Below, piece after piece: positions 11,396 to 30,300 of a stretch of 64,000 bases of DNA. Source of the DNA: Planctomycetota bacterium (lineage in GTDB: Bacteria > Planctomycetota > JAJSAM01 > JAJVHW01); assembly GCA_965248445.1 (NCBI GenBank), contig CBDFJG010000004.1, positions 1,024,001 through 1,088,000 of the forward strand. Direction: 5' to 3'. Position 1 is the first letter of the stretch. Each line of letters opens with the position of its first letter. The notes under the pieces were generated by a model. That model was not told the DNA's origin and searched no databases. It was given only the letters and a program-made list of their open reading frames with translations. A program made the translations under genes and the position numbers.

Positions 11396-11417
11396 CGTCC
11401 TCGAACGGAGGCCCGTC

Positions 11418-12485
11418 ATGCGTCAGTTCTCCCTGTTCCTGCTCGGCTTTGCGCTGGTGGCCCCTGGGGCGTCGTTCGCGGGCGCGGACGCGCCGAAGCT
11501 CGCCGCCCAAGAAGTCGTGCTTACGCATCGCACGTTCCGCCGCTTCAAGCTGAAGTTGCCGAACGAACAGTGGCGCCGCGTCGGCGACGGCATCCCGGTC
11601 GCGCACGCGGGCGGCGAGCGCTTCGCCGTCAAGGCGGAGGGCAACGCGCTGCTCGTCGACACCGACGGTGACGGGACGACCGACACGCGCGTCGCGAAGC
11701 GCTCAGAGGGACAGGTCGCGCCGCTTGTAGTGAAGCTTCGCGGCAAGCGCGAGGGCGGCGCCGAGTTCGTATACGCCGTGCGGTTGCAACAGGGGGGCAG
11801 CGGCTGGGAGTACGCGCCCGGCGGTGCCGTCCGCGGCAAGCTCGGTGAGACGCTCGTCCAAGTGATCGACCGCAACGGCAACGGCCGCTACGACGACGTG
11901 GGCGAGGACGCGGTGGTCGTCGGACGGGGTCGACACGCCGCCTACCTGTCCGAGTCTTTGCTGGTCAACGGCGAGCTTCACGCGCTCGACGTCGCGGCCG
12001 ATGGCACGCGCCTCGGGCTGCGGCCGTACGAGGGGCCGACCGGCACGCTCGACATGACGTCCGAGTTCGCGTCGGAGGCCAAGCTCCAGACGGCGCTGCT
12101 TCGGAACGCCGACGGGACACACACGTTCGATGCGGCGCAGATGGACGGTCCGACGCGCGTTCCGGTCGGCGAGTACACCCTGGGAGCCGGAATGCTGGCG
12201 CTGGGCGACGGCTCTCTGCGCGTACGCGGCGACTCCGAGCGCGTGATCGCCGTCGAGAAGGATCGTCCGGCGGTGCACGTGTGGGGCGGCCCGGTTCGCG
12301 CCGAGTTCAGCTTCAACGTCGTCGGCGACGAGTTGCAGTTCGACCCGCGCGACGTCTGGTACACGGGCCGCGGCGGTGAGGAGTACCTCGACATGCTACC
12401 GCTCGGTGCGTCTCCCGAGTTCGTGGTCAAGTCGCGTGAGACCGCCGAGGAAATCCTCCGGGTCGCGTTCCCGGGGAGCACGTGA
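11418..12485 (+). CDS. Secreted hypothetical protein; probably extends through a recoded TGA to 12617 (399 aa, candidate selenoprotein)
   Basis: RBS GGAGG, signal peptide, Ca-binding-like DTDGDG and DRNGNGRYDD motifs; the frame stays open with coding-like codons for 43 codons past the TGA. Confidence 0.85.
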   Translation: MRQFSLFLLGFALVAPGASFAGADAPKLAAQEVVLTHRTFRRFKLKLPNEQWRRVGDGIPVAHAGGERFAVKAEGNALLVDTDGDGTTDTRVAKRSEGQVAPLVVKLRGKREGGAEFVYAVRLQQGGSGWEYAPGGAVRGKLGETLVQVIDRNGNGRYDDVGEDAVVVGRGRHAAYLSESLLVNGELHALDVAADGTRLGLRPYEGPTGTLDMTSEFASEAKLQTALLRNADGTHTFDAAQMDGPTRVPVGEYTLGAGMLALGDGSLRVRGDSERVIAVEKDRPAVHVWGGPVRAEFSFNVVGDELQFDPRDVWYTGRGGEEYLDMLPLGASPEFVVKSRETAEEILRVAFPGST

Positions 12486-12514
12486 GGGAGCGGCTTCGTA
12501 CCGGTCGCCGTGCG
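12483..12514 (+). promoter_or_regulatory. Candidate bacterial SECIS element directly after the in-frame UGA
   Basis: Stem CGUAC/GUGCG starts after an 11-nt spacer from UGA; GGUC lies at +18 to +21, similar in placement to the E. coli fdhF SECIS. Confidence 0.5.
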
Positions 12515-12727
12515 CGTGCCGACATCCGATCCCATCGACGTCAGTCTGGTCCTGGACAACTGGGCCCTCGGCAAGGTCGAGGGACGTCCCGTCGACGAGA
12601 CGCAGGACGCCCAGTAGCCACGTCCGCGACGAGCCTCTTCGATGAGGCGTTGGGCGTCCTCGTTGCAGGTGTCCCGAGTTCTACTGGTCCGGGTTCCCCG
12701 ACTCTTGCACTGCGCTACCATGCGCGT

Positions 12728-14338
12728 GTGAAGCTCCCGTGGCTGCTCGGCTCGCTCCTCGTCCTGATGAGCACCTCGACGTTCGCCCAGGACGCCGCCG
12801 GGGACCCTGGCCAGCAGTGGCGCGAGCTGCAGCCCGAGTACGACCGCGCGTTCACGATGGTTCCGATCAGGCGGCTGTTCGGCAACCCCGACAAGGAGTT
12901 GAAGTTGAGCCGCCGGGCGCCCTACACGGCGGCAGCCAAGGCAGAGCTCGCGGCGCGGCGCACGAAGGATCGCCTGTCTCGATCGCAGGCGCTCGCGGAG
13001 CGGAATCTGCGCGATGACATCGTCAAGCGCGTCGCCGCGCTAGGCGACGACCGCGCGGCGAAGCTGCTCATGCGGACGTGGCAGGACCAACTCGAGAACA
13101 TCGAGCTCGCGCAGCGCAACTTCGACCGCTTCGTCGACGCGAACAGCGTCAACATCAACCCCGGCGTCGATCCCGGCGGCGTCTACTGGCAGCGCTGGAT
13201 GGGCAAGCACGAGCTGCCCGCCGCGCGCGGAGTGCTGACCGCGGAGCAGCGTGTGAAGGACCTCGCGCTGGCGGGGTGCGTCAAGCTGATGACGCCGGAC
13301 GTGAAGGACTGGCTCGCGAAGCACGCCGAGTCGCACGAGCAGATCTGGGTCCGCGAGGAGATGGTCGCGGCGCTCGCCAAGAGCAGCGACGTCGGGAACG
13401 TCACGTCACTCGGCCGCATCCTGGACGCGGAGCCGGAGGTGTGGGCGCGTGTGATGATCGTCCTGGCACTCGGCGAGGCGAAGGCGCCAGGAAGCGACGT
13501 CTTCGTTTTGCGCGCGCTAGCCGACGAAGCGTGGCCCGTGCGCTCGGCGGCGATCTCGTCCGTGCGCATGCTGGGGCTACGGGACACCGGCGCGATCGAT
13601 GCGCTCGTGGCGCGGCTCGAGGCCGACGACGGCAAGCTGCGGCTCGAGGCGCGCAACGCACTGGCCGTTGCGACCGGCAAGGGCTTCGGACTCGAGCCCG
13701 AGGAGTGGAGGGACTGGTGGGAGAACGCGCGTCCCGAGTGGAAGGAGCGGGCTGCGCCGACGAAGATCGAGGAGTACACAGAGGGGCTCCCGCGCTTCTG
13801 CGGCAGCGCCACGGCGTCGAAGCGCGTCGTTTTCCTCGTGAGCCGAGGCGCGCACATGGCGGAGCCGACCAAGCGGCGCTCGAACGGCAACGCCGGGCAG
13901 ACTTCGTCGGCGCCCACCGTGGACACGACCCTGCGCATCGCTGCGTGGGAACTCGAGCAGACACTCCAGCGCCTGCCGGAGGATGCGCTCTTCACGGTGA
14001 TCCTGTACGGCGCGGAGCCGAAGCTCTGGTCGAAGAAGCTCAAGGCACCGACGAGGGACTCACGCGCGAAGGCGGTGCGCTTCGTGCGCAAGGCCGCGCC
14101 CGAGGGCCGGAGCGTGCTGGCGACTGCGATGGACGCGACCCTGCGCATCGGTGTCGCAAAAAGGGTAGACGACCTCGCGCTCGCCGGCGTCGGCGACGTC
14201 GACACGATCTTCGTCGTGGGCGGCACGCTCAACGCCGTCGGCTCACTCGGCGGACCGCTCTCCGGCAAGGCAGTCGTACCGCGCGTGCGGCGGCTGCGAC
14301 GCGTGGACATCCGGGTCGTGCGTCCCGGGGTGAAGTAG
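12728..14338 (+). CDS. Secreted HEAT-repeat protein with a C-terminal degenerate vWA-like domain
   Basis: GTG start with signal peptide; HEAT repeats (DEAWPVRSAAI, LRLEARNAL..TGKGFG..WRDWW); SKRVVFLV and FTVILY vWA-like strands without a DxSxS motif. Confidence 0.8.
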   Translation: MKLPWLLGSLLVLMSTSTFAQDAAGDPGQQWRELQPEYDRAFTMVPIRRLFGNPDKELKLSRRAPYTAAAKAELAARRTKDRLSRSQALAERNLRDDIVKRVAALGDDRAAKLLMRTWQDQLENIELAQRNFDRFVDANSVNINPGVDPGGVYWQRWMGKHELPAARGVLTAEQRVKDLALAGCVKLMTPDVKDWLAKHAESHEQIWVREEMVAALAKSSDVGNVTSLGRILDAEPEVWARVMIVLALGEAKAPGSDVFVLRALADEAWPVRSAAISSVRMLGLRDTGAIDALVARLEADDGKLRLEARNALAVATGKGFGLEPEEWRDWWENARPEWKERAAPTKIEEYTEGLPRFCGSATASKRVVFLVSRGAHMAEPTKRRSNGNAGQTSSAPTVDTTLRIAAWELEQTLQRLPEDALFTVILYGAEPKLWSKKLKAPTRDSRAKAVRFVRKAAPEGRSVLATAMDATLRIGVAKRVDDLALAGVGDVDTIFVVGGTLNAVGSLGGPLSGKAVVPRVRRLRRVDIRVVRPGVK

Positions 14339-14509
14339 CGCGCCGGGCGACTCCCGGAAGGCGATGGAGCCTGGGCGGCCGGTAGCTTGCGGCGGCGCCT
14401 GAGCCCGGCAGCGCCGAGCGATCGCAATAGCAACGCTGTCGCTCGTGCGCGCACGCGTGCGTGAGGGGGCTGGACACCGGGCGCTCCGCTCCGCTAAGAC
14501 GGACGGTTG

Positions 14510-16840
14510 ATGCGCACTTCCGCTGCGATCGCCCTCGTTCTGCTCGCGTCGCTCGCGGGGGGGCACGGGGTCGTGAAAGCCCAAGATGCCGAGGCTCCGG
14601 CGGAGTCCGGCCGCTACGGGCGCATCCCGGTGCAGGTCGTCGGAGGGCGGCTGGTCGCGTCGTGCGACCTGTCGACCGAGCGCCGCCGCATCCCCGCGAA
14701 CCTGTTCATCGACCTCGAGGGACCGAGCGGATTGCAGCTGCACAACCGGGCGGTTGGCCGCGGCGCCTTGGAGGCCGAGCTGGGTGGCAACCGGCTCCCC
14801 ATCACCGTGCACTTCCCCGGACTGAACATCACGGTTCCCGGTCGCGAACACGGTGATCAGGAGGCGTGGGAGGACTTCACGAAGTACTACTCCGACGAGA
14901 TCGGTGAGAACGCGGTCGTCGGCGCGATCGCAGGCCGGTTGCTCTCGAAGTACCACCTCGTGCTCGACGTCGGGAACGGCTACCTCGAACTCGCCGAACA
15001 GAAGTCGCCGGGCGCCGCGCTCGAACTCGCGGAGCGCGGCGTGGAGCCGGTTGCGATCGCGGTGAAGAACGACGTGGCTTGGCTTCCTGTGCGCCTGCCC
15101 GACGGTCGCCTCGCGTCGATGGGCCTCGGCACCGCGCGTTTCGACACCCGTATCGATGCGCGGCTTTGTGATGGCCTGGGCCACGCGGCCGGCGACGTCG
15201 GTGCCGTGACCGTCGGCTCGATCGATCTGGCGAGCTACGTCGCGCTGCGACCCGATGACGTGCTCTACGACGGTCCGGACGGCACGGCCGGATTCGTCGG
15301 GCTGAACCTGCTGAAGCACCTGCGCGTGGAGATCGATCTCGTCAATCGGCGGGCGACGGTGCAGGAATCCGTGGCGCCCGACTACCCGCACGCGGACCTC
15401 GCGTTCTTCAAGGCGCTCGTGCAGGACGAGTCGGCCCCGCTGCTCACTTACCTCGACGCGCATCCGGAGTCGCGATGCGCTCAGGAGGCGTCCGTCAGAC
15501 TCCTCGACCTCTGCATCGAGGAAGACGCGCCGGAGGAGGCCGTCCGGGCCGCCGTCGGGTGGGTCCAGAGGACACAACGGGAGAACCTGCGTGCCACCGC
15601 CGCCCTCGATCTCTGCGAGGAACTCGCTTCCGCAGGCAACGTCGCGGAGGCGGTCCTCGTCGCAGAGGCCGGCATCCCCGACGGCCGCAAGGACCGCTAC
15701 CCGGAGTCGGTGCACAAGCTGCACGCGAGGATCGGCGCGTTGCTGCTCGACGCGGGCGAGGGCAAGCGTGCTTGGAAGCACCTGCTGTCCGCGGCGTTCG
15801 GCGAACCCGAAGACGGTCTCGTCAACTTGCACCTCGGCCGGTACTACGAGGAGGCTGGACGCCTGAAGCGCGCGTTCTCACGCTACGTGCAGGCGTCCAT
15901 CAAGCCGGAGAGCGGCGCGCGCGCGCTCGAGGGGCTGGCCCGCGTGCAAGACCAGCTCGGCGGCGCGACTCTCGACGTGGACGAGATCGAGCGGCTGATC
16001 GAGGGGAAGGTCCAGAACTACACAGCGGCCACGAAGTTCGAGCAGACCGACGAGAACAGCACGAATCGGATCAGTCTCGTCGAGTTCTTCACGTCGCCGC
16101 ACATCCTGCCCGTGCAGGGCGGGCTCGGCGGCGCGCTCGGCAACGAGGGCGTGATCACGCACTTCGGTCGAGAGCACGTTGCAGCGCTCGCGTATCACCT
16201 GCCGTCGCCGCAGCTGTCGCCGCTGTCGAACGCGCTCGGCTCCGCGCAGGCGCGTTTCTACGGTCTCGGCGGCCCGGCGCACGTCGTCGACGGCCAGCCG
16301 AAGGCCGCGGGCCTCGCGCGGTCCGACGAGGGCGAGAAGCTGTACCGCGAGGTGCGGCAGTCCGTCCGCGAGGCGATGCTCACGTTCTCGGACTTCGACC
16401 TCTCGATCGAAGGCGAGGTCGCCGACGGCCACGTGCGCGGAACGGTCACGGTGGACGGGCCCGAGGCACCGGGCGTCCAACTGCTCGTGATCCTCGTCGA
16501 GCGCGGTGTCCTGTACCCCGGGAAGAGCACGGTGGTGGTCCACCGTCTGGTCGCTCGCGGTCCGCTCACGCCCTCGCTAGAAGGCGAGCCCTACGAACCC
16601 GTGGACGGCAAGATGAAGTACGAGTTCGACCGGCCTCTGGCAGAGATCGACCAGGCGAACGAGGCGTACCTCGACTCGCTCCAGCGCAGCGGCGCCGGAT
16701 CCGTCGAGCGGGTCTCGATGCAGATCGACCCGAAGCAGGTCTCGATCGTCGCGTACCTCCGCGCAACCGAGTCGAAGAAGGTCCTTCAGGCGGTGCAGTT
16801 GAACCCGCGCGGCGCAGAGCCCGACGAGGCCGACGAGTGA
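14510..16840 (+). CDS. Secreted multidomain protein: tandem retropepsin-like domains, TPR region, thioredoxin/Omp28-like C-terminus (catalytic motifs degenerate)
   Basis: Signal peptide; GAIAGRLLSKYHLVLD and GFVGLNLLKHLRVEID; TPR DGLVNLHLGRYYEEAGRLKRAFSRY; SLVEFFTS...LAYH. Confidence 0.7.
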   Translation: MRTSAAIALVLLASLAGGHGVVKAQDAEAPAESGRYGRIPVQVVGGRLVASCDLSTERRRIPANLFIDLEGPSGLQLHNRAVGRGALEAELGGNRLPITVHFPGLNITVPGREHGDQEAWEDFTKYYSDEIGENAVVGAIAGRLLSKYHLVLDVGNGYLELAEQKSPGAALELAERGVEPVAIAVKNDVAWLPVRLPDGRLASMGLGTARFDTRIDARLCDGLGHAAGDVGAVTVGSIDLASYVALRPDDVLYDGPDGTAGFVGLNLLKHLRVEIDLVNRRATVQESVAPDYPHADLAFFKALVQDESAPLLTYLDAHPESRCAQEASVRLLDLCIEEDAPEEAVRAAVGWVQRTQRENLRATAALDLCEELASAGNVAEAVLVAEAGIPDGRKDRYPESVHKLHARIGALLLDAGEGKRAWKHLLSAAFGEPEDGLVNLHLGRYYEEAGRLKRAFSRYVQASIKPESGARALEGLARVQDQLGGATLDVDEIERLIEGKVQNYTAATKFEQTDENSTNRISLVEFFTSPHILPVQGGLGGALGNEGVITHFGREHVAALAYHLPSPQLSPLSNALGSAQARFYGLGGPAHVVDGQPKAAGLARSDEGEKLYREVRQSVREAMLTFSDFDLSIEGEVADGHVRGTVTVDGPEAPGVQLLVILVERGVLYPGKSTVVVHRLVARGPLTPSLEGEPYEPVDGKMKYEFDRPLAEIDQANEAYLDSLQRSGAGSVERVSMQIDPKQVSIVAYLRATESKKVLQAVQLNPRGAEPDEADE

Positions 16841-18321
16841 CAACGCTCACCGATCTTCGCGCGCGCCTCGAGCGTGCGGCCGAGGCGCCGCGTGCTGCGC
16901 TCCGTGATGCACGCGGCACAGGCGCCCGCCGCGCCGCTCTGGAGACGGCCCTTCCGTACGTCGAGGTGGTGCCTGCTCTGGCGCTCGTCATCGCGTTCCT
17001 GTCCACGCTGGGGCTCCCGGTCCCCCTGCCGCCTTGGTGGGTGTTGCTCGCGCTGACCGTCGTCCCCGTGGCCGCGTTCGTCTGGCATGGATGGTGGAGC
17101 GCCCGCTCCGCGCCCGCAGGCGTCATGGACGGCCTGGCACTGCTCGACCGCGAACTCGACATCGACGACCAGTTGCAGTCCGCGTACTCGCTCTCGCGCG
17201 TCGCCGCGCCGTCATCGTTCGTCGTCGCGGCGATCGAGGATGCCGAGCCGCACGTCGAGCGCGCCGCAGCAACCACGGTGTCGCCGTCAGCGTCGTCGTC
17301 CCCGCTCTCTGCGCGGGCCCTCTGGGCCCCGCTGCTCGCGGCTGCGATGTTGTTGATCGCAGTTCTCGTGGGCGGCGGTACCTGGGACGTGGGCGATGAC
17401 GCCGGACAGGACGTCGCGGACGCGCCCGCGCCGTCCGCGGGACCGCTCGATGCCCCCGAAGAGGGCGGCGGCGATGCGGAGGACTCCGCCGAGCGTGCGG
17501 CGCGCAGAGCGTCGCGCCTGAGCGCCGTCGAGACGGAGGCCGAGGAGTCCGACGCGCACGCGCTGCCCGATGAGGCGCGCTCTTCCAAGGGCACCGGCGG
17601 GGCCGGGGAGTCTGCCGCGGCGTCCGACGCGCAGGGCGCGAGCCAGGCGCGCGGTATGCCTTCGGGACAGGCCGAGTCCTCGACTCCGCCCGAACGGCGC
17701 GCCGCGCGGCGTCCCCCGAAGAAGAAACGGGACCGCGACGACGAGCCGCCACCGCCTCCCAAGGAGGACAAGGAGGGTGACTCCGGCGCGACCGCCGGCA
17801 GCGGTGCCTCCACGGGATCCAATCGAAACCCTGCAGTGTCCGACTGGTCGAGCAAGGACCACGTTCCCGAGACAGAGGACGACCCGCTCGAGGACGACGA
17901 GGACGTCGACGACGAAGATGATGAGCAGGACAACCGGGGCGGCGCGCAACCGATGCTGCGAGACCGCAAACCGCCGGTGAACCGCGACCTCACGATCGGA
18001 TTTGGAAACCGTCCGAGTCCTGATGCGAACGGCCGTGGCGGCCCGTCACAGATGAAGAAGTCCCGCGGCGTGGCGTCGCTGATCCTCGGCGTTCCGATTC
18101 CCGATCACGTCAAGGGGCAGCAGAGTCCCGGCCGCACGAAGGTAACCCAGGAGCGGGTAGAGCCGCGCGAGGACGATGCTCCGCGCGTGACGGCCGAACA
18201 GCGTACACCGCGCGCAGGTCCGGCCGGCGCCGTCGTCCATCCGGAGCTGGGGTGGACGCTGCGCGATCTCGTACGGACCTACTTCCTCACATTGCGTGAG
18301 CAGGAGAACACGAAGCCATGA
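16837..18321 (+). CDS. Membrane-anchored protein with an acidic/disordered C-terminal half (MoxR-operon partner)
   Basis: GTGA overlap; N-terminal TM helices, LDRELDIDDQLQSA motif, D/E/G/S-rich tail ending LVRTYFLTL. Confidence 0.75.
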   Translation: MTTLTDLRARLERAAEAPRAALRDARGTGARRAALETALPYVEVVPALALVIAFLSTLGLPVPLPPWWVLLALTVVPVAAFVWHGWWSARSAPAGVMDGLALLDRELDIDDQLQSAYSLSRVAAPSSFVVAAIEDAEPHVERAAATTVSPSASSSPLSARALWAPLLAAAMLLIAVLVGGGTWDVGDDAGQDVADAPAPSAGPLDAPEEGGGDAEDSAERAARRASRLSAVETEAEESDAHALPDEARSSKGTGGAGESAAASDAQGASQARGMPSGQAESSTPPERRAARRPPKKKRDRDDEPPPPPKEDKEGDSGATAGSGASTGSNRNPAVSDWSSKDHVPETEDDPLEDDEDVDDEDDEQDNRGGAQPMLRDRKPPVNRDLTIGFGNRPSPDANGRGGPSQMKKSRGVASLILGVPIPDHVKGQQSPGRTKVTQERVEPREDDAPRVTAEQRTPRAGPAGAVVHPELGWTLRDLVRTYFLTLREQENTKP

Positions 18322-19343
18322 GCAGTTCAGAGACAGCGGTGTCGGCCGAGGCCGCCCGCGAAGCGGCCTCGCGCTTCCGCGAAGTGCATGAACGCATCCG
18401 CGAGCAGGTCGCACGGATGATGGTCGGGCAGGTCGACGTCGTCGACGGCGTGCTGGCCGCGTTGTTCGCCGGTGGCCACGTGTTGCTCGAGGGTGTGCCG
18501 GGACTCGGCAAGACGATGCTCGTGCGGTGCCTCGGCAAGGCACTGGATCTGCGCTTCTCACGCATCCAGTTCACCCCCGACATGATGCCCGCGGATGTCG
18601 TCGGCACGTCGGTGCTCGTCCCAGACGAGGACGGCGGGCACCGCCTCGAGTTCCAGGAAGGGCCGATCGTGGCGAACCTGATCTTGGCCGACGAGATCAA
18701 CCGCGCGACGCCGAAGACGCAGTCCGCGATGCTCGAGGCGATGCAGGAGCGGCAGCTCTCCATCGGCCGCCGCACGCTGAAGCTCGAGGAGCCGTTCTGC
18801 GTCATGGCGACGCAGAATCCGATCGAGCAGGAGGGCACGTATCCGCTGCCCGAGGCGCAGCTCGACCGGTTCCTCTTCAAGCTGGTTGTCGGCTACCCCG
18901 CGGAACGCGAGTACGTCGAGATCCTGGACCGGACGACCAGCGATACCGAAGTCGAGATTCAGGCGGTCTCGAGCGCGAACGAGATCGTCGAGTTGCGCGA
19001 CGTAGTCCGCGCAGTGCCGGTGCCCGATCACGTCAAGTCGTATGCCGTTCGCCTCGTGATGGGCACGCAGCCGGGCAGCGACTACTCGCCGGAACTCGTC
19101 AACGAGAACGTGGCGCTCGGTTCGAGCCCGCGCGGCGCGCAGGGGTTGCTCCTCGGCGCGAAAGTGCGGGCGCTGCTCGGTAGTAGGCATGCGGCCGGCA
19201 CGGACGACGTGAAGGACGTGGCGCTGTCCGTGCTGCGTCACCGGGTTCTCGTCAACTTCCAGGGGCAGGCCGACGGTGTGACGCCGGACAAGATCGTGCG
19301 CGCGGTGCTCGATCACGTCCCGCCGCCGCACGGCAACGTCTGA
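18318..19343 (+). CDS. moxR: MoxR family AAA+ ATPase
   Basis: GHVLLEGVPGLGKT, RIQFTPDMMPAD, ADEINRATPKTQSAMLEAMQE, ATQNPIEQEGTYPLPEAQLDRF. Confidence 0.97.
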   Translation: MSSSETAVSAEAAREAASRFREVHERIREQVARMMVGQVDVVDGVLAALFAGGHVLLEGVPGLGKTMLVRCLGKALDLRFSRIQFTPDMMPADVVGTSVLVPDEDGGHRLEFQEGPIVANLILADEINRATPKTQSAMLEAMQERQLSIGRRTLKLEEPFCVMATQNPIEQEGTYPLPEAQLDRFLFKLVVGYPAEREYVEILDRTTSDTEVEIQAVSSANEIVELRDVVRAVPVPDHVKSYAVRLVMGTQPGSDYSPELVNENVALGSSPRGAQGLLLGAKVRALLGSRHAAGTDDVKDVALSVLRHRVLVNFQGQADGVTPDKIVRAVLDHVPPPHGNV

Positions 19344-20242
19344 TGGCCGACGCGCCGCTGACCGTCTCGGACCTCGTCGACGCGGAGTTCCTCTCGTCGA
19401 TCGACCGGTTGCGCATCGTCGCCAACCGAGTCGATCCGGGCGGCCGCTTCGCCGACCAGCGTTCGCGCGAGTCCGGCAGCGGCATCGAGTTCCGCGACTA
19501 CCGCCCGTACTCATCGGGCGACGATTTGCGCGCCGTCGATTGGAACATCTACCGCCGGCTCGGGCGGGTGTTCGTGCGGCTCTTCGAGGAGATGGAGGAC
19601 CTGCCGCTCTACTTGCTGCCCGACGCGTCGCGGAGCATGTTCGTCGAAACGCCGCCCCGCGCGATTGCCGCCTATCGCACGGCGTTGGCACTCGCGTCGA
19701 TCAGCGTCAACCACCACGACACAGTCACGCTCATGCCGTTCGCGGAGGGGCTGCAGCCCGTCTCGCGGCCATCGTCCGGTCCCGGCGCGGTGCTGCGTCT
19801 GGCCCGCCGGCTGGCGGACGTGCGACCCGGGAACGGCTCCGAGCTCTCGGCGGCGATCGACAAGATCGGTCACATGCGCCTGCGCCGCGGAGTGCTGGTC
19901 GTGGTGTCCGACTTCTTCGACCCCGCGGGCATCGACGACGTCGTGAAGACCCTGCGCCGGGTTCGGCACCGCCTGCTCTTGATCCAGGTGACGCGTACCG
20001 CGGACCGGGAGCCGGACCTCTCCGGCGACGTGCGCGTGCGCGACTGTGAGAGCGGCTCCGCGGAGGACGTGTCGGTCACCCCCCACGTGATGGAGCGCTA
20101 CCGCGCGGCGTACGACCGGTTCGAGAGTGTAATCGCTGACGTCGCGCGTTCGCGCTCGGCGGGCCTCCTGCGGCTTGACGCCGACGCGCCGGTCGTGCCG
20201 CAACTCGTCGAACTGTTTCGCAGCGGGAGCTACGTCGCGTGA
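19343..20242 (+). CDS. DUF58 domain protein
   Basis: GSGIEFRDYRPYSSGDDLRAVDWN, DASRSM, VVVSDF; follows moxR. Confidence 0.93.
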   Translation: MADAPLTVSDLVDAEFLSSIDRLRIVANRVDPGGRFADQRSRESGSGIEFRDYRPYSSGDDLRAVDWNIYRRLGRVFVRLFEEMEDLPLYLLPDASRSMFVETPPRAIAAYRTALALASISVNHHDTVTLMPFAEGLQPVSRPSSGPGAVLRLARRLADVRPGNGSELSAAIDKIGHMRLRRGVLVVVSDFFDPAGIDDVVKTLRRVRHRLLLIQVTRTADREPDLSGDVRVRDCESGSAEDVSVTPHVMERYRAAYDRFESVIADVARSRSAGLLRLDADAPVVPQLVELFRSGSYVA

Positions 20243-21906
20243 GCTTCGCGCGCTTCGGACCGCTGGGGGTGCTCCTCGGTCTGGCCGGCCTGGCCGGTGT
20301 GCTCTACCTGCTGCATCGCCTGCGGGTTCGGCACCGCGAGCACGAGGTCGTGACGACACTCTTCTGGCGGGAGGCAGTCGAGGACGTGCGCGCCCGTGTG
20401 CTGGTGAGGCGGTTCCGCCAGCCGCTGGCATATGCGCTGATGTGCGCGATCGCCGCAGCGCTGTGGCTGGGAGTTTCGGGACCGAGCATCGAGCCGGGCG
20501 ACGTTCGCGACCATGTCATCCTGCTCGACGCGTCCGCGGGCATGATCCGCGGCGGTCGCCTCGCCGACGCGGTCGACGCGGCGCAGGCACGTGTTCGGGC
20601 GCTGCCCCGGGCCCGCACTCGCGTGGTGGTCTGTGGCGCGCGTCCTGAGACAGCGCTCCTGCCGGGCGAGGACGAGGTGTTGCTCGCGGCCCGGCTCCAC
20701 GATCTCCAGCCAGCCTCCTGTCCCCCGACCACTGGCGACGCTGTGCGGAGCATCCTCCGCGCACCACATGAGAACCCGGTGACCGTGCATGTCATCGGCG
20801 ATCTGCCGGAGACGGTGCCCGGCGGGGCGAACGTCGTCGTCGAGGTCACGCCGATCGCGGCGCAGGACGCGCCGAACGCCGGTATCACTTCGATCGGTGT
20901 CACGCCTGCACGTTCGGGGCGCCGCGGCGTCGTGGACGTCTTCGTCGAGACACGCAGCGACGCGGGCGCTGCGCCCGAGGCAGTGTTGTCAGTCGCGGGT
21001 CGGGAGACGGTCCTGCTGTCGGGCGATGACGCTGTTCGGCAGGCGCTGCACCTGGATGTCCCGGCCGGCGCCGGCACAGTGGAGGCGCGGATCGCGGGCA
21101 GTGACGCCATCGTGGCCGATGACACCGCGTCGATCCGTCTGCCGTCGGACACGCCGATCCGTGTGCGCGTGGACGATGCGCTGCGGCCGGTGATCGAGGC
21201 GGTGACTGCGGCCGCGCCCGACCTTGTTCTCGTGGACGCCGCGGCTGACGTGACGGTCACGCGCGACCGGCGACAGGTCGATCAGCCCACGCTGACAGTG
21301 GCGGATCCGGATGCCGGACACGCCATTCACGTGACACACCCGGGAGGCCGCTCGGCCGCGGCGGTGCTCGACGAGATCGTCGCCGCGCTGTCTCTCGATG
21401 CCATCGACGCAACCGGACTCGCGCGGCGAGCGGGCCGAGCTGTCTCGGTCGGAGTCGAGCCCGGCGACACGCGGCAGCTGCGCGTCTGGCCGGCGTTTCT
21501 GGGGGACGACAGCGCTCTGCACGCGGCCCGCACGCACCCGGTGTTCATCGCCGGCGCGCTCCGATGGCTGGCTGGTCGCGCCGACACGCCGTCGTTCGCC
21601 GCTGCCGGTGAGCGCGTTCCCCAGCTGCGAGGCACACTCGTCGCCGCCGACGGTGCGCGCCAGGACGCGCTCGGCGCGGCGTTGACGCTCCCTCGTGCCG
21701 GCGACTACAGCGACGAGCGCGGCGAGACCGTGTCCGTCAGTCTCTCGTCTCCGTTCGTTACGACGGGTAACAGAGGCGAGAGCGCCGCGCCTACCGCGGC
21801 GCCGTCCGGCGGTGGCAGCACCGGCCTTGTCACCCTTCTCGGTGTCGTGGCTTTGGTGCTCCTTCTCGTCGAGTGGATGGCACATCGCACGGGGCGGATG
21901 GCGTGA
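20239..21906 (+). CDS. BatA N-terminal + vWA domain membrane protein
   Basis: LYLLHRLR..REHEVVTTLFW (BatA-like), ILLDASAGM, C-terminal TM LLLVEW. Confidence 0.85.
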   Translation: MSFARFGPLGVLLGLAGLAGVLYLLHRLRVRHREHEVVTTLFWREAVEDVRARVLVRRFRQPLAYALMCAIAAALWLGVSGPSIEPGDVRDHVILLDASAGMIRGGRLADAVDAAQARVRALPRARTRVVVCGARPETALLPGEDEVLLAARLHDLQPASCPPTTGDAVRSILRAPHENPVTVHVIGDLPETVPGGANVVVEVTPIAAQDAPNAGITSIGVTPARSGRRGVVDVFVETRSDAGAAPEAVLSVAGRETVLLSGDDAVRQALHLDVPAGAGTVEARIAGSDAIVADDTASIRLPSDTPIRVRVDDALRPVIEAVTAAAPDLVLVDAAADVTVTRDRRQVDQPTLTVADPDAGHAIHVTHPGGRSAAAVLDEIVAALSLDAIDATGLARRAGRAVSVGVEPGDTRQLRVWPAFLGDDSALHAARTHPVFIAGALRWLAGRADTPSFAAAGERVPQLRGTLVAADGARQDALGAALTLPRAGDYSDERGETVSVSLSSPFVTTGNRGESAAPTAAPSGGGSTGLVTLLGVVALVLLLVEWMAHRTGRMA

Positions 21907-24341
21907 GTCTCGTCTTCCAATCGCCCGCATGGCTTTGGCTGCTCGCGCTCGTTCCGCTGGTGTGGTTCATGCCGCGTCGCCTGCGCGATGTCCCACACGG
22001 CATGCTGCGCTCTCTCTGTCTCGCACTTCTCGTGCTCGGGTTGGCGCGCCCGGCGCTGCTCTCGCAAGGTGGCGCTGAGCACCACGCGATCATCGTGGAC
22101 ACCTCGGCGAGCGTCGCAGCCGATGCGCGCGCCCAGGCCGGCGCGCGTGCGACCGCGCTCGTGACCGGCGCGCGAGGAGGCGAACGCATCGTGCGGATCG
22201 ACGTCGGCGACGCCACCGCGTCGCCGCTCGGCGCCGCCCTTGCGGCTGCGCTGCGCGAGATCCCGGTCAGCGCGGCGGGCTCCGTGACGGTGTTCTCCGA
22301 CGGCCTGTCGACGGAGCGTGACATCTCGCGCGAGATCGCCGCGCTCTCGGCGCGCGGCGTGCCGGTGCACGTCGTACCGCTGCCTGCTGCCGCCGGGCCG
22401 CCACGGCCGACGGCCCTCGAGCCCACCGGACTACTGCGCGCCGGCCACACCGCGCGCTTGCGTGTGGATCTCGCCGGAACGGGCACGGCCGACGTTCGGC
22501 TCGTCGGGCCCGGTGGTGAGCTTGCGCGGGCGGACGGCGTCGTGTGCGACGGCGCGGTGTCGGTCCACCTCGAGATCGAACCGGCCGAGGCCGGCTTCCT
22601 CCCTCTCCGCGTCGTGACCGGCGACGGAGTCGGCTCCGCTCTCGCGCGCACTGTGCCTGTAGATCGCCCGCTGCGCGTGCTGCACCTCGGAGGACGCGTA
22701 GGCGATGGCGGCGCCCGGCTCGAGGACCTGCTCGGCGCGGGGTTCGACCTCGACGAGCAGGATGTCACGCCAGGCGCCGACCGGCTCGCGTCGTACGACG
22801 CCATCGTGGTAGACGACCGCCCGGTGGAGTCACTCCCCGACGACGAGCAGACTCGGCTCGCCGCGGCGGTCTCCGCCGACGGCGCCGGACTCCTGATGTG
22901 TGGAGGCGGCGGAGTGTTCGGCCCGGGCGGCTACCACGACACGCCGCTCGGCGACATCCTCCCGGTGGAGTGTGCGCAGAAAGAGGAGAAGCGCGATCCG
23001 AGCACGACGCTCGTCGTGATCATCGACACGTCCGGCTCGATGGGGGGCACGCGCGTGCAACTGGCCAAGGAGGTCGCGCGACTCGCGATCCGCCGCCTGC
23101 TGCCGCACGACAAGGTCGGCATTGTGGAGTTCTTCGGAGCGAAGCGCTGGGCCGCGCCGATCCAGCCCGCCTCGAACTCGATCGAGATCGAACGGGCGCT
23201 GAACCGCCTGGACGCCGGCGGTGGCACCGTGATCCTGCCCGCGATCGAAGAGGCGTTCTACGGTATGCAGAATGTGCAGACGCGCTTCAAGCACGTCCTC
23301 GTACTGACGGACGGCGGAGTCGAGCGGGGCGCGTTCGAACCAATGTTGCGCCGCATGGCCGACGAAGGGATGAACGTGTCGACTGTCCTCATCGGCCCCG
23401 AGGCGCACAGCGAGTTCCTCGTCAGCATGTCGAACTGGGGAAAGGGCCGCTTCTACAACGTCCCCAACCGGTTCAATCTGCCGGAGCTGATGTTGAAGCA
23501 GCCGACCACGGCGCGTCTCCCGGCGTATCGCCCGGGTGTGCAGCCGGTCACGGCGCACGGCGGCCCGTCGTGGTGGGGCGACGTGAATCCCGCATCGCTG
23601 CCTCCGATCTCCGGACACGTCGAGACGGTTGCGCGGCCAGGTGCCGAAGTGCTCGTCGAGACGGCGGCCGGCGCCCACCCCGTGTTGGCGAGCTGGGCGT
23701 ACGGACTCGGACGCGTCACCGCGCTGACGACCGAGCCCGTCGGACCCGGGACGGCGACGTGGCGCGAGTGGAAGGACTACGGTCGCGTGCTGGCACGCGT
23801 GCTGACCCGCACAGCGACGCGATCACCGCCGTTCCTGTTCGATCTGCACCGGGACGGGGGCATGGTTACGGTGCGCGCCGCCCGCGTGACGACGCGTGAC
23901 GTCCGGCCCGAGGTCCGCACGCTCGACGCGTCCGGCGAGCAGTCGGAGCCGGTCGCGATGCGACAGCGGGCCGACGGCATCTACACCGCGCGCATTCCTG
24001 CCGCCGACGGGGAGGACCTTCGGCTGGCGGCCGGCGCAGCGGGCGCGCCGGAGTCGAGGCTCGTCTCGCCCGCCGTCGCCGAGCACGCGCGCGAGTTGCA
24101 GGTCGATCCGCGCCACGCGCTCGACCTGGTCGCACTGGCGGAGGCGACGGGAGGTGAGGTCGTGGAACTCGCCGGCGCCGCCGCGTTCCGTCCGCGGGCC
24201 GCAGGCGGTCTGAACGCCCGCACCGCGACATCGCTGCTCCCGCTCGCGTGGTTGCTGGCGATCCTCGCGTACCTCGCCGATCTGCTTCATCGTCGTTTCC
24301 CGCGGCGTTTTCCCCGGCGCGCGCAAGAGGGTGTGTCGTGA
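21903..24341 (+). CDS. vWA + glutamine-amidotransferase-like domain membrane protein
   Basis: GTGA overlap; IVDTSAS and IIDTSGSM MIDAS motifs, VLTDG, GAGLLMCGG..FGPGGY..TPL..ILPV, WAYGLGRV, C-terminal TM. Confidence 0.88.
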   Translation: MSLVFQSPAWLWLLALVPLVWFMPRRLRDVPHGMLRSLCLALLVLGLARPALLSQGGAEHHAIIVDTSASVAADARAQAGARATALVTGARGGERIVRIDVGDATASPLGAALAAALREIPVSAAGSVTVFSDGLSTERDISREIAALSARGVPVHVVPLPAAAGPPRPTALEPTGLLRAGHTARLRVDLAGTGTADVRLVGPGGELARADGVVCDGAVSVHLEIEPAEAGFLPLRVVTGDGVGSALARTVPVDRPLRVLHLGGRVGDGGARLEDLLGAGFDLDEQDVTPGADRLASYDAIVVDDRPVESLPDDEQTRLAAAVSADGAGLLMCGGGGVFGPGGYHDTPLGDILPVECAQKEEKRDPSTTLVVIIDTSGSMGGTRVQLAKEVARLAIRRLLPHDKVGIVEFFGAKRWAAPIQPASNSIEIERALNRLDAGGGTVILPAIEEAFYGMQNVQTRFKHVLVLTDGGVERGAFEPMLRRMADEGMNVSTVLIGPEAHSEFLVSMSNWGKGRFYNVPNRFNLPELMLKQPTTARLPAYRPGVQPVTAHGGPSWWGDVNPASLPPISGHVETVARPGAEVLVETAAGAHPVLASWAYGLGRVTALTTEPVGPGTATWREWKDYGRVLARVLTRTATRSPPFLFDLHRDGGMVTVRAARVTTRDVRPEVRTLDASGEQSEPVAMRQRADGIYTARIPAADGEDLRLAAGAAGAPESRLVSPAVAEHARELQVDPRHALDLVALAEATGGEVVELAGAAAFRPRAAGGLNARTATSLLPLAWLLAILAYLADLLHRRFPRRFPRRAQEGVS

Positions 24342-27300
24342 GGGGCGCCCGCGCCGTTCTGCTCGCACTCGCCCTGGCGGTGCCGGCGATGGCTCGCGCC
24401 GCGGACGCGGAGAAGCCCGAGCTCGACGCGTCGGTCCACGCGGCGCTCGCCGCCGCGCGAGAGGACCCGACGTCCGCCGCCGCCATCGCCGGGCTCGTTG
24501 ACGCGTGCGTCACAGCACACGGCGACGTCGGACCTCTCGTCGACGAGCTCACGCGCTTGCTCGGCGACGAGTCGATCGCGTCCGGCGACCGGAAGAGTAC
24601 GGAGCTCGTGCAGCTCGACGTGTTGCACCGCCGCGGCGACATCCGGCAGGCGCGCAAGCTCGCCGACCAGATGATCAAGGAGGATGATGACCCGGCCCTG
24701 GCCCTCCGGCGCGCGCGGCTTCTGGACGCACTGGGGCGCGGGAAGCTCGCGAAGACGGCCTACGAGGAGGTTCTCCCGCGGCTGACGGACGACGAGCAGA
24801 TCACGACCGTGCGGCTGCGGCTCGCGCTCCTGAATCGTGAGGAGCTCGGCGGCGGCGCCAGTTCCGGCACCCGCAGGAGCGGGATGATGATCATCATGTC
24901 GTCCGGCGGGTCGGTGCGCGGCGGTGCGAACAAGCGGCTGTCCCGCCCTCCGCCGGAATCCGGTGCGGCGCTCGCGGAATTCGCCGATCGCGACGGACTC
25001 GATGTCGCGCTGCGCAACCGAGCCGCCGCCGTGCTGGGAATGCTGGGTCATCCGGACCGCGCCGCGGACCTGCTCGTGCCGACCGGCGACGCCCGGAATC
25101 GGTTCCGGCAGGCCATCCGGCGCGCCGAGTGGGCCGTCAGTGCGCGTTCGTGGGACCGCGCGAAGGAACTCGCCTGGGCTGCGCTGGATGCGGCTCGATT
25201 CCGTCGGGACCGTGTGTACGCGCTCTCGGTCTTGGTCGAAGCCCACCGCGGCGGGGGCGCGCTGCAGGAACTGGTCGATCGTTTCGCCGCGATGGAGACG
25301 GTGAAGGACGACGTCCGCCGAACGTGGATCGACGCGCTTCGCGAGATTGGCAACGTGAAGGAGGCGCTCCGGCTGTTCCGCCAGTCCACCGGAGGCTCGT
25401 TCACCGCGCCGATGCGCCGCGAACTCCTCGAACTCTGCCGCCAGTCCGGAGACGACGCCGTTCTGCGCGACGCGTACGACGAGCTCGTAGACGCCGAGCC
25501 CGCGCGCGTCGAGTGGCGCGAGGGCCTCGCACGCTTCCATCTCGAGCGCGGCGACCGCGAGGCGGCCGCGGCGGCCTTCCGCGATCGGGCGCCCGATCCG
25601 GAGGACGCGACCTACCGTCTTGCAGCAGCGGGCGCGACGTCCTCCCTGGGGCTGCATGACCTGGCGATGGAACTCCTCGAACGCTGCGTCGAAGACGGGG
25701 ACGGCCGCTACGAGGCACTGATCTTCCAGTCCGATCTGCACCGGCGCCGCGGTGACTTCAAGGAGTCCGAGGCGGCACTCGATCGCATGGACGAGATGGC
25801 TCCGCCCGACGAAGCGGCACGCATGCAGCTGTCCGATGCGTTCGAGCAACTGGGCCGGCTGGACCGCGCCGTCGAGGTGATCGAGAAGGTCGTGGAGTCG
25901 CGCGGCGCGGACAGTGCCGGCGAGGACCTCTCGATGCGCCTGGCCTGGCTGCACTCCGAACTCGGCAACGAGGAGGACGCGCTGGTCGCTTGGCGCGAGC
26001 TGTGGGAACGCGTGGACTCGATCGCCCGCCGCCGCTACGTCGAAGACCGCCTCATGACCGTGGCGTCGCGTCTCGGCACGCTTGCGGACATCGTCGTGGA
26101 ACTCGAGGAACGGCTCGCTGCGGGCGACGCCGACCCGCGCGCGAGTGGATTGCTCATACGTATCTACACGCGAGTCGCCGACGCGGTCTCCGCGGCCGAG
26201 GTCATCGACGAGTTCATGAAGCTCACGGGCGGTGACGAGATCAAGGCACTGAACGAGAAGTCGTTCGTCTACCTCGCGTGCACGGATTACCGGAACTATG
26301 AGGCGACCATCGAGGAACTCCTCGAGCGCGACCCCGAGAACACCGGCGAGTACCTGCAGCAGCTCGCGATGAGCAAGCTCGAGCGCGGCCGCCTCGACCA
26401 GGCGCGCGGCGTGCTGGAGCGCCTGCGGAAGGTCGAGGACCCGGGCGTCGGCGCCGAATTCGAGGCCGGCGTGCTCGCGATGGCGGGGCTGCGCAAGGAA
26501 GCGGCGCACGCGTACCGGCGTGCGGTCGTGGGGCGCCCCGATCACATCGACGTGTACCTGTTGCTCGGAAAGACGCTCAAGGAGCTGGGGCAACAGGAGC
26601 GCGCCGTCGGCATGTTCCAGTACTTGGTCGAGCACGCGGAACGGGACGACCTCTTCACGATCGCCGTGGACGGGCTGCTCAACCTCGAGGCGCCGCCGCA
26701 CGTCCTGAAGTGGGCACGCCGCGTGACGTACGAACGTCTCGCGTCGCGGCACGACAAGACGTACCTCTACCAGCTCGTCGCGGATCTCTCCGAAGAGCTG
26801 AACGACTTCGATTCGATGATCCGCGCCCACGCCGCGTCGCTGCCGATCGCCGGCGAGCGCCGCACTTCGCTCCTGCGCGAGTTGATGGACCTCTGCGGAC
26901 AGCAGAACTACCAGTCGCTGCGATTGCGATACGGCCGGAGGCTGCTCGGCACGGACGAGGTCGTCCCGCCTCAGGTCTACCTGGACCTCGGCGAGGCGTT
27001 CCTCGGCGCCGGGGATGCCGCGGGCGCGGCGAAGACGTTTGCCCGCGCGGCCGATCTGCCCGACCAGGGCGGATTCCAGCGCAAGGTCGCGGACTCGTTC
27101 CAGCGCCGCAGATACCTGACGCGCGCGCTCGACGTGTACCGCCGTGTCCTGGTCGGCGAGGCGGACGACGTCGCGGTACTCGTCAAGGTCGCCGAACTCT
27201 GCGAGCAACTCGGCACGGACGAGGAGGCGCACGACACCTGGGGCCGCATCGTGGACCTGCTGCTGCGCCGACGGCCGCTCTCGGTGGTGAAGGGCAAGGA

Positions 27301-30300
27301 AGAGGAGGTCGACGACCGCAACCCGTGGGCAGCGTGGTACGCAAAGAACGTCGATGCGTTCGACGAGCACTTCGATAGTGCCGCGGCGGGTCTCCTCGCG
27401 ACGCTTCCGGATGACGCTGCGGGTCTCGCACTCGCCGCCGCGGCCGCGACCGACGTGCGTGCGGACCTCGCGCGGCTGGCGGCGGAGGCGCCGGACGACG
27501 CCGAGGCGGAGATCACGCTGGACACCTACCCGCGAGTCCGCGACCGGGCTGCGTTCGTGCGCCGCGTCGCCACGGCTTGCGGTGATCCCGCCGTGGCGGA
27601 CGACCTCGACCTCGCCCTGCTCGCCGCGCTCCGGGATGACGAGAAGCTGCTCGAGACGCTTTGCCGCGGGCGCTTGGAACAGGGACTGATCGCATCTGCG
27701 CGAAGGCTCGTGAAGGAGAGCGTGCAGCCCGAGGAGCGCAAGGCGGCGCTGCGATACCTCGTCGGCCTGGGGTCTTCCGAGGCGGCGCCCGGACGCGTGC
27801 CGGTGAAGGAGGCGGTGGGCCTCCTCCTGCCGCTGCTCCGCGACGGCAAGACCGATCAGCTCGTGACGCTCCTCCGGCAGGTCGACATCGACGCAGCTGG
27901 GAAGGACGAACTCGATGCGTTCGCTCCGCTTCTCTGGACGTCCATCCTGCTGGAGGACGTCGACCTGACGCTGCGCATGGGACGCCGCTGGGTGCGCGTC
28001 GCCGCCAAGCATGCGCCGCAACACGAGGTCACGGGCATCGTCGACCTGATCCTCTCGCGCACGAGCCGCCTCCTGAACACGGCGCAGCACCGCAGCCTGG
28101 CCGATGCGCTCATCACGCATATCGCCGACGATCCCGAGAAGAACAGCGGTCTTGTGTCCGCGCTTCCGGGGATCCAGGAGCGCTTCGAGGAACCTCTGCT
28201 CACGACCGAGCAGGCACTCGAGTTCATCGCGGCGATGGCTGAGAAGCGCTCTTGGGGCATGGGCGCCGTGCTGAGTCTGATCGAGGAGAACGAGGCGCTG
28301 AGCGCACTGCGCACGGCGGTCGACAAGACTCCGGAGAACCAGCGCGCGGTGGTGATGCCGCAGCTCATCGGCGGACTGGAAATCGCCGCCGACGAAGACC
28401 TCGCCGCGTTCGCCGTCGCCACGTTCGAGAGGTCGCTCGACGACGTGCAGGACGAGTGGTACCTGCGCTACCTGCTGCAGAACTCGCCGGTACAGAACGG
28501 CGAGAACCTACCTATCTTCCTGCGGTTCGCGGAGGTGCTGGTGGAGAAGAAGCCCGAGATCGAGCAGAACTCGGTCGCGCTCGCGCAGACGCTCCACGCG
28601 CTCGGTAGGACGGACGAGGCGCTCGACATCGCGGCGGAGCAATACCGGAAGCTCGCCCGCGCCGGCACCCAGGACTGGCAGAAGAACAGCGCCCGCAGCA
28701 TGCTCACGATGACGTTCCTGCCGGATCACCGCGATCGCTTCGAAGCGGTGCTCGACGACATGGAAGAGCAGGAGGGCAAGGACGCGATCCTGGCGCTCCG
28801 CCGGATCGAGCTGTTCCAGAGCGGCGCGACCCGGCTGCAGATGCTCGATGCGCTGCGGACTGCGCACGAGAAGCACCCGAAGGACGAGCAGATCCGAACC
28901 CGCTATGTCCAGCAGCTCCGGTCGGTCGGACGGCGTCGCCACGTGATCGGTGTTCTGGGCGCGGCACTCGAGAGAGAGCCGTCCAATCGCCAGCTCGAAC
29001 AGCAGATCGTGAGTGAGTGGCGGAGCATGGATCACCCGGTCAAGGCGCTTGCCGAGCAGGAGCGTTTCGCTGCGGCGCACGCCGACGGTGACGAGGACGA
29101 GCTCGCGCCCCGCGGCCCCGACGAACGGGCTCCGCTGCCGACGATCTCCGAGATGAAGAAGGCGCTCGAGGCAGGCGACGAGGAGACCGTCCGCACGATC
29201 TACCGCCGCATGTGGCGCCAGTTCGGGACGAACTCGCGTTTCATCTCCATGTACCGGACCAACCGCATCGAGAACATGTGGTGGCCCGTGGCGCGGACGC
29301 AGGACGGCCCTCCACCGAGGGGCGGGCTGGAGGGATTCGACGACCTGCGTGAGACCGAGCCGTTCGTGCGCACATCCGCGCACGACGTGTTGGCAGAGCA
29401 CGAGTTCGGCCGCGACGAGCTGCGTCGCATCGTGCGCACGCTCGAGGGACGCGATGTCGACACGGTCCCATCGGTGCACAAGGCCCTGGTCACCTCGAGC
29501 GCAAAGGGTGACACCGCGGGCGCGGTGGCGCGGCTCGTCAACCTGGTCCGTTCGGGCAAGGGCGGACGCATCGAGAACGCGCTGCTTCTCGAGCTGCTGG
29601 CCGAGCACCCCGAGTCCGCCGGCGCGGACGCACGCGAGGTTCTCGATGAGCTGACTGCGAACGTTTCACCTGACGACGGTGCAGCGATTCGGCGCCTTGC
29701 GCGCATCCACGCCAAGCTGGGCGATGCCGGCGGCGCGAAGCGGCTCTACCGTTACTGCGCGCACCTCTCGACGGCCGGATACTCGTGGGGCGTGCAACGC
29801 TACGTCCCGATCCAGGCGCGCGAACTCGTCGACGACGTGCTGGAAAACGTCACGGGCGAGGCGCTGGCCGAGGTCCTGGACACGCTCATGCGCACGGCCG
29901 ATCCGGGACCGAAGCACTGGGGGCGCGACGGCTTCGAGATGCTCGTTCTCGACACTTGGGAGAAGGCGTTCGACGCGGACACGGCGCTGCGGCGAGGTGC
30001 CCACATCGTCGAGAACGTGCGCGACACAGAACACGCGTACAAGCGGGGCACCGCCCGTGCCGCGGCTTACCTCCTGGCGCGCGCCGGGCGCACCGACGAG
30101 GCGATGGCGTGCCTCGAATTCGCCATCTGCCGTCCGGAGGAGACCGCCGAGTCGCTGACGCTCCCGGCGTGGGAGCGTCAGCGGCGGTTCATGGGCATCA
30201 CGCTGAACACCAACGACGTCCGCCGCATGTTCCCGGCTCCCGGCGGCGACTGGCAGCCGTCACCGGCGTGGCTCTCGCGATCTGCGGACGCACTCGCCCA

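Follow-up and report, generated by a model that had tools for sequence, protein, structure and literature searches.

The SECIS element of fdhF has an apex of the GGUC type. A broader model of the bacterial element (bSECIS), in the available part of its description, allows a loop of 3-9 nt with a G within the first two loop positions, a spacing of 16-37 nt, a stem of 4-16 bp and an energy of at most -7.5 kcal/mol (PMC13188914). For new selenoprotein families, the available part of the preprint by Haft and Gwadz calls for at least 10 homologs with TGA and for no other stop codon at the aligned site (their criteria 1 and 2), and it reports that SaoC and SaoX carry signal peptides (bioRxiv 10.1101/2022.07.06.499078). 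Bat-like gene clusters have been proposed, although not proven, to supply periplasmic reducing power (PMC5700661, available part), and chaperone-like maturation roles of MoxR are mentioned in the available text of PMC3893208.

Here we describe a putative selenoprotein gene from a Planctomycetota bacterium (assembly GCA_965248445.1, contig CBDFJG010000004.1). The window, that is, the whole stretch of DNA analysed, is 64,000 nt long, and its features are listed in Table 1.

Table 1. Features of the putative selenoprotein gene and of the genes that follow it (positions in the window)
Feature	Position	Strand	Description or basis
Shine-Dalgarno-like GGAGG upstream of ATG	11407..11411	+	sequence
Putative selenoprotein gene	11418..12617	+	399 codons, Sec356; predicted exported, all-beta, apparently three domains; Cys-free protein
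Predicted signal peptide, about residues 1-21/23	11418..11486	+	hydrophobic N-terminus; cleavage site inferred by eye
Predicted C-terminal Ig/FnIII-like beta-sandwich, about residues 286-394, with Gly-rich Sec loop	12273..12599	+	model; weak generic matches
Predicted Sec-UGA codon	12483..12485	+	TGA in 90/95 other loci, TGC in 5
43-codon extension, predicted last three beta-strands of C-terminal domain	12486..12614	+	
SECIS hairpin	12502..12521	+	upper 3-bp stem, apical loop CGUGC 12509-12513, bulged U 12517; covariation
Stable hairpin spanning TAG	12605..12659	+	no U-tract
HEAT-repeat protein gene (start inferred), between selenoprotein and usual neighbour	12728..14338	+	Pfam HEAT_2
Conserved partner, ~780 aa: pepsin-like bilobed, TPR-like helices, HBP35/Omp28-type thioredoxin-like domain	14507..16840	+	model of L031 homolog
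Membrane protein, ~494 aa, conserved in cluster	16837..18321	+	weak DUF4175 match
MoxR AAA+ ATPase	18318..19343	+	Pfam AAA_3, E 5e-62
DUF58 protein	19343..20242	+	
BatA-like/vWA protein	20239..21906	+	both matches below Pfam cut-off
vWA + GATase1-like membrane protein	21873..24341	+	

Results

The first-pass annotation had read an ORF through its TGA, and we recovered each element of that reading: the ATG at 11418, the TGA after the residues FPGST and 43 open codons up to the TAG at 12615-12617. As it had also noted, 37 of the 43 extension codons end in G or C; in the gene body 312 of 355 do so. For so GC-rich a genome an open frame of this length is not rare; 1085 of the 1976 TGA-ending long ORFs have 43 open codons past the stop. 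A coding score as high as that of this extension was reached by only 17 of the 1976. The decisive evidence for a candidate Sec codon is comparative. The public contigs X1, X2 and X4, all from one sample that is possibly the source of this DNA, span the TGA with no differences, and therefore a read error is unlikely. The predicted hairpin across the TAG was likewise found (arms 12605-12613 and 12651-12659, folding z = -3.6), and a search near the 3' end of the gene detected no sigma-70 promoter or terminator.

A first protein search gave 27 matches, nearly all of which end at the stop of this ORF, while one with Cys continues. The two protein searches together yielded 172 homologs, of which 131 stop at this position and 13 show a clear Cys and continue across the extension. 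We fetched 102 loci, of which 95 could be placed at the Sec column; L096, L099, L100, L102, L104, L105 and L106 were left out of this count since the site was not covered or not aligned, and two of these, L105 and L106, proved on later reading to have TGA there. The aligned codon was TGA in 90 of the 95 and TGC (Cys) in five, with neither TAA nor TAG and no replacement by Trp, Arg or Gly. Since the locus collections overlap, they amount to 80 distinct downstream sequences, the window included. Homology also continues past the TGA, with a column conservation of 0.56 for the 36 residues before it and 0.56 for the 34 after it, as against 0.21 for the tail in the same 50-row alignment. Thus, everything that the three criteria in the available text of Haft and Gwadz look for was found, including similarity that crosses the site and Cys homologs of matching length.

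We also searched a sample of 301 genomes of the phylum and obtained 35 matches at E 1e-100 or better in 27 genomes; 34 of them hold a TGA, and the remaining one appears to be the Cys gene L031. In the same sample the core form was present in none of seven genomes of the same family and none of eight of the same order. The named records are from Planctomycetota, with a few from Verrucomicrobiales and some from bacteria that are unclassified, and Engelhardtia mirabilis Pla133 (L016) is a cultured carrier. A search of the Atlas returned hypothetical Planctomycetota clusters, one of which, with 38% GEVED, we regard as a lead only.

Next, we analyzed the region downstream of the TGA. The earlier proposal of an fdhF-like stem, CGUAC/GUGCG with a GGUC apex, did not hold across the family: it was paired in 53.8% of cells among 80 sequences, below the shuffled controls. 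The stem does exist in the window, where it is the minimum free energy (MFE) fold of 12483-12530, but with z = +0.31 it is no better than shuffles. A different hairpin, at 12502-12521, pairs in 87.9% of cells in the 80 sequences, a level that none of 500 shuffles reached and that compares with 23-53% in slid controls. Its central pair is never broken (G-C 50, A-U 22, U-A 6, G-U 2), and its conserved loop, CG(U/G)GN, lies 23 nt past the UGA. The pattern of a 3-bp stem with this loop occurs in 89 of 90 TGA genes, a count that is partly so by construction, and in all 19 held-out loci, which were unused in deriving it. The held-out test did not include L159, which is a Cys gene, L161, whose contig is truncated, L162, where the first stop falls past the site, or L146, which probably duplicates L022. 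None of the five TGC genes, which represent about three lineages, has the pattern. Synonymous codon choice points the same way: where the loop codon specifies Val, it is GTG in 69 of 69 cases against a background of 31%, and where it specifies Gly, it is GGG in 11 of 11 against a background of 12%.

The hairpin of the window falls within the bSECIS geometry, with a loop of 5 nt, G as the second loop position, a spacing of 23 nt and seven pairs plus one bulge. Its energy is borderline, at -7.1 kcal/mol for the 20-nt hairpin alone and -8.6 with flanks, and the MFE fold of the 48-nt region contains a different stem. An unbulged register of the lower stem was rejected: it fits about a quarter of the sequences, mostly from the solo clade, and not this gene. 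A covariance model of the family SECIS convincingly matched only this gene in the genome, and therefore this SECIS is family-specific. A CGUG-type loop at a spacing of 18-24 nt is also seen in five further candidate selenoprotein genes in the genome.

The Sec machinery that the reading presupposes is in place, with selA, selB, selC and selD all found in the genome; SelB is represented by its C-terminal domain only, the tRNA-Sec has the anticodon TCA, and selD carries one in-frame TGA of its own. A SelA match was obtained in each of the 39 carrier genomes from which the GTDB loci come. This co-occurrence carries little weight, since selA is also present in 49 of 61 relatives, and the Cys-version genes likewise lie in selA-positive genomes.

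These data bear directly on the alternative that the TGA is a real stop, arose by nonsense mutation or misreading of the DNA, or has been reassigned (to Trp or Gly), with the 43 codons being a chance frame or a separate small ORF. In its favor, TGA is the commonest stop of this genome (1821 of 2981 long ORFs), the SECIS region folded as a single sequence is no better than shuffles, and the annotation of most homologs in the databases stops at this point. However, the prevalence of TGA as the main stop also means that the code is not reassigned, which rules out the genome-wide form of this alternative. Moreover, one column holds TGA and never TAA or TAG across homologs of about 30-50% identity; Cys is the sole alternative residue and occurs in single uninterrupted proteins; the frame past the TGA is conserved and supplies the rest of a predicted domain; and the SECIS covaries and decays in the Cys genes. 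We consider this alternative close to refuted and highly improbable, and on comparative grounds the TGA at 12483-12485 almost certainly encodes Sec. The original suggestion, an exported selenoprotein of 399 codons that has Sec at residue 356 and falls outside the classic families, thus has strong support from the homologs, the SECIS, the sel genes and the structural model.

We also examined the genome for other in-frame TGAs. It looks very selenoprotein-rich, with about 25 in-frame TGAs recognized by eye in UxxC, CxxU or similar contexts and with coding signal on both sides; a Cys lies within three residues of 40 of 184 such in-frame TGAs, as against 12 of 256 for TAG. Examples are C1+315009, C1-614313, C4-186851, C4-1613192, C4-548911, C4+366568, C3+1277437, C4+669339, C3-1771889, C4+1210341, C4-135754, C1-331183 and C1-424680. 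To our knowledge, several of these candidates resemble no recognized family. Three near-identical copies of one gene region occur at C1+9086, C2-872616 and C4-899877, and a near-identical region was also seen at C1+4138, C2-877564 and C4-905422, which suggests a repeated element of several kb.

Residues around the Sec codon were compared in 96 rows. The pre-site and site residues are CU in 72 rows, TU in 8, SU in 8, CC in 4, and UU, AU, GU and SC in one each. A second TGA follows in three of the SU rows, so that there are four Sec-Sec genes among the 96. The T-U-G context of the earlier note is present in the window gene, but it is a minority form in a family whose norm is Cys-Sec. Six of the eight Thr-Sec members have a Cys 1-6 residues downstream; the window protein is Thr-Sec with no Cys anywhere, and it is one of nine Sec genes that lack a Cys in the aligned stretch around Sec. 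Tandem TGA-TGA codons were seen at L022:6027-6032, L027:4519-4524, L038:3518-3523, L095:1877-1882 and in L148; a single hairpin serves both codons, and the genes lie in separate parts of the tree. The distant relatives L105, L106 and L137 carry YG-Sec-xxx-C (UxxxC), and many distant homologs, such as L123 and L126-L129, have neither Sec nor Cys at this loop. L105:3-1232, L106:1584-3179 and L137:1030-2361 form a distant subfamily with YG-TGA-G-x-x-C followed by YSWR(V/I)P; their downstream hairpin differs in sequence, they gave no NCBIfam match, and L137 adjoins selA on contig G061:C140.

The N-terminus of the protein has a hydrophobicity peak of 2.6, compared with 1.4 for the rest, and this hydrophobic segment is shared with 94 of 102 near-full-length homologs; we infer that the protein is exported to the periplasm or envelope. 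The structure of the read-through form, with Sec modelled as Cys, was predicted with high confidence (mean pLDDT 93.8, pTM 0.89) and is almost all beta. In the model, the extension is predicted to supply three strands that complete the C-terminal Ig-like domain, and Sec is placed in a Gly-rich loop before them. This C-terminal part aligns weakly with Ig/FnIII-like domains (Z 5.8 or less). No clear relative emerged from Foldseek, from VIA-align or from a sequence search of the PDB (the highest Z was 6.2, with no match reaching 8), with coverage mostly from residue 183 on; an antibody light-chain match at E 0.0009 was treated as noise. No Pfam family matched at E up to 0.1, and no NCBIfam family matched at E up to 1 for five proteins; four distant read-through homologs likewise gave no NCBIfam match. 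A thioredoxin fold with UxxC or CxxU at Sec is absent, the model being all beta with no such motif. Two DxDxDG-type loops are conserved in the family and, judging from the motif, may bind calcium, and the conserved columns contain no invariant His, Met or further Cys.

We then compared gene neighborhoods. The reported PMT_2/GT-C gene does lie 22 bp upstream, but among 57 loci with at least 1.5 kb of upstream sequence it was found only in this window; we therefore rejected a functional link, and this glycosyltransferase is an apparently incidental neighbor. The regular neighbor is the partner gene, which lies downstream in 56 of the 75 loci that offer 600 nt or more. Its offset is 1893 nt in the window, as against 48-553 nt elsewhere, and the spacing by a HEAT gene occurs only here. 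The partner protein lacks DTG and CxxC motifs, its closest fold is the hemin-binding protein HBP35, and its Cys53 is conserved in 37 of 41 rows; the partner family has no Pfam match above cut-off and was detected in 34 of the 301 phylum genomes. After the partner come the membrane protein at no fewer than 23 loci and MoxR at no fewer than 21, counts that are limited by flank length, and then, as read in this window, the DUF58, BatA-like and vWA genes in series. At 24248-30763 there is also a 2171-aa ORF with many helical repeats, which begins within the last part of the vWA gene and is probably the final gene of the cluster. Beyond it lies an ORF at 30933-31934 (- strand) that, as we take it, resembles an IS1595-type transposase.

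Of the 27 sampled genomes that carry the family, 24 also hold the partner. A strong partner match was found in 30 sampled genomes, six of them without the core family. We read seven partner loci, five of them in genomes from this set of six and two in carriers of the solo clade, and in none is the selenoprotein upstream. Moreover, a 28-row clade of selenoprotein genes (support 100/99) has no partner gene in cis. Therefore, the link to the cluster is not obligate. In one Verrucomicrobial-type clade (L023, L028, L068, L076), a TlpA/ResA-like CxxC domain is fused to the C-terminus, which represents one event because it is one clade (100/100); at L012, L013, L014 and L024 a thioredoxin gene lies upstream (Pfam-checked on L012). 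L078 and possibly L155 have a TlpA/ResA-like fusion too, and the SECIS is 3 nt closer to the UGA in the thioredoxin-fused genes.

Discussion

We propose that SelB bound to the hairpin at 12502-12521 would insert Sec at codon 356, and that the resulting selenol may act in the periplasm or envelope as a nucleophile with redox activity. Sec would, in most members, cycle with a neighboring Cys (Cys-Sec, Sec-Cys or Sec-x-Cys) or with a second Sec; the window member is Cys-free, and therefore its Sec would depend for exchange on thiols supplied by other proteins or by small molecules. TlpA/ResA-type thioredoxins may re-reduce the selenol, and the selenoprotein could serve as an accessory of the MoxR/DUF58/BatA/vWA envelope-assembly cluster. 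We give this functional reading as a whole about an even chance. It is favored by the second Cys or Sec adjacent to the site in most members (72 CU and four UU of the 96 rows), the nearby downstream Cys in six of eight Thr-Sec members, the UxxxC motif of the distant relatives, and the fused and upstream thioredoxins; the cluster role is favored by the frequency of the downstream partner and by its co-occurrence with the family. On the other hand, the fold is not an oxidoreductase fold, nine Sec genes have no nearby Cys, the thioredoxin fusion is one event only, and the thioredoxin-like domain of the partner has no CxxC. The existence of distant homologs without Sec or Cys means that the scaffold has a Sec-independent role, and the partner-less clade and the six genomes with the partner alone speak against the cluster role.

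The main rival to a redox role is metal binding, in which the Sec loop would bind or sense a soft metal, for example Cu, Hg or Zn, and pass it to MoxR/vWA for insertion into envelope proteins. MoxR/vWA pairs help to mature metal-containing complexes. The tolerance of CU, TU, SU, UU and UC would fit a ligand loop, the closest fold of the partner is a hemin-binding protein, and CU dipeptides occur in the organometal-related SaoL, SaoB and HgcA, according to the available parts of the sources (bioRxiv 10.1101/2022.07.06.499078; PMC13188914 Table 1). However, the conserved columns offer no additional invariant ligand of the His, Met or Cys type, and the fusion and neighborhood links point to CxxC thioredoxins; we regard metal binding as rather unlikely. 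Even less probable, in our estimate, is a structural role, with an Se-Se or Se-S cross-link between subunits or to the partner that would stabilize a calcium-binding surface or an envelope scaffold. Such a role would suit the all-beta fold with its weak resemblance to adhesin and Ig-like domains, the two DxDxDG-type loops with their putative calcium binding, the Sec-less homologs, and a Cys-free member that could dimerize via one Sec. Nevertheless, 90 of 95 loci retain Sec, although the gene can do with Cys even when selA is present, as the four Cys loci that come from genome assemblies show; such a preference would be costly for a simple cross-link. Returning to the redox reading, in its most specific form the family would provide, by means of Sec, the redox head of a Bat-like (MoxR/vWA) envelope machine in planctomycetes, in which Cys-free members would use a lone selenol on an Ig-like domain and exchange intermolecularly with the pseudo-protease/TPR/thioredoxin-like partner or with clients. 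This form is tentative and we consider it doubtful; if true, it would be the first named redox chemistry for MoxR/vWA (Bat-like) clusters.

Comparison with known systems

For the comparison with described families we used the papers on BSepDB (PMC13326102) and deep-Sep (PMC12013277), bioRxiv 10.1101/2022.07.06.499078, PMC4807772 and PMC5700661, each in its available part. In the 2026 catalogue of 119 families by its authors' count (PMC13188914 Table 1), none fits, as far as the descriptions set them apart, and the available text of that paper does not mention Planctomycetes. Among the literature titles and the beginnings of abstracts, none describes the family, although the candidate list of Deng et al. 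2026 could include it. The family is sizeable and routinely mis-annotated, as its core form in 27 of 301 sampled phylum genomes and the database homologs cut at the Sec codon indicate.

In its decoding, the gene resembles the SelB/bSECIS selenoprotein genes of the available text of PMC13188914, with its in-frame UGA, in-ORF hairpin, full sel machinery and Cys homologs, and it agrees with the bSECIS consensus given there in its 5-nt loop, G at position 2 followed by U, and 23-nt spacing. In contrast, its family loop CG(U/G)GN departs from the GGUC-type fdhF apex named in the first-pass annotation, and it differs from the catalogued SelB/bSECIS selenoproteins in having no Pfam or NCBIfam family match. 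The vicinal Cys-Sec of most members is shared with SaoL, SaoB, SaoC and HgcA (Haft and Gwadz) and with MbdU and KCU-star (PMC13188914 Table 1), and, as for CU-dipeptide selenoproteins in the available parts of these sources, annotation ends about 40-50 residues early. Unlike those proteins, the window member is Thr-Sec and Cys-free; the family as a whole further differs from them in the lack of a sequence match (NCBIfam), its all-beta fold, its range in Planctomycetota and Verrucomicrobiota, and its MoxR cluster in place of an SAO locus. With the thioredoxin-fold UxxC/CxxU selenoproteins (Trx, TlpA/ResA-like, Prx-like), of which the same genome has many genes, it shares predicted export and a presumed redox role, and one clade is fused to a TlpA-like domain; in contrast to them, its Sec is predicted to lie in the loop of an Ig-like sandwich with no UxxC motif. 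It would thus place Sec on a non-thioredoxin, all-beta, exported scaffold, and the Cys-Sec, Thr-Sec, Sec-Sec and Cys-Cys forms, together with the decay of the SECIS in the Cys genes, provide natural controls within the family.

The series of MoxR, DUF58, BatA-like and vWA genes recalls the Bat-like clusters of Bacteroides, Leptospira and Borrelia (PMC5700661, available part), with BatA matches below the curated cut-offs (PF07584, 22 vs 25.9 bits; NF047508, 25.1 vs 380). Unlike the known clusters, however, this one is headed by the putative selenoprotein and a pseudo-protease/TPR/thioredoxin-like protein. Because the selenoprotein usually heads a MoxR/DUF58/vWA cluster, the idea of a periplasmic redox function for such clusters becomes directly testable. 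Judging from the comparisons of sequence, this is almost certainly a real selenoprotein family, uncatalogued in the sources compared, that combines a known decoding mechanism with an unusual scaffold and a testable link to a MoxR/vWA envelope cluster.
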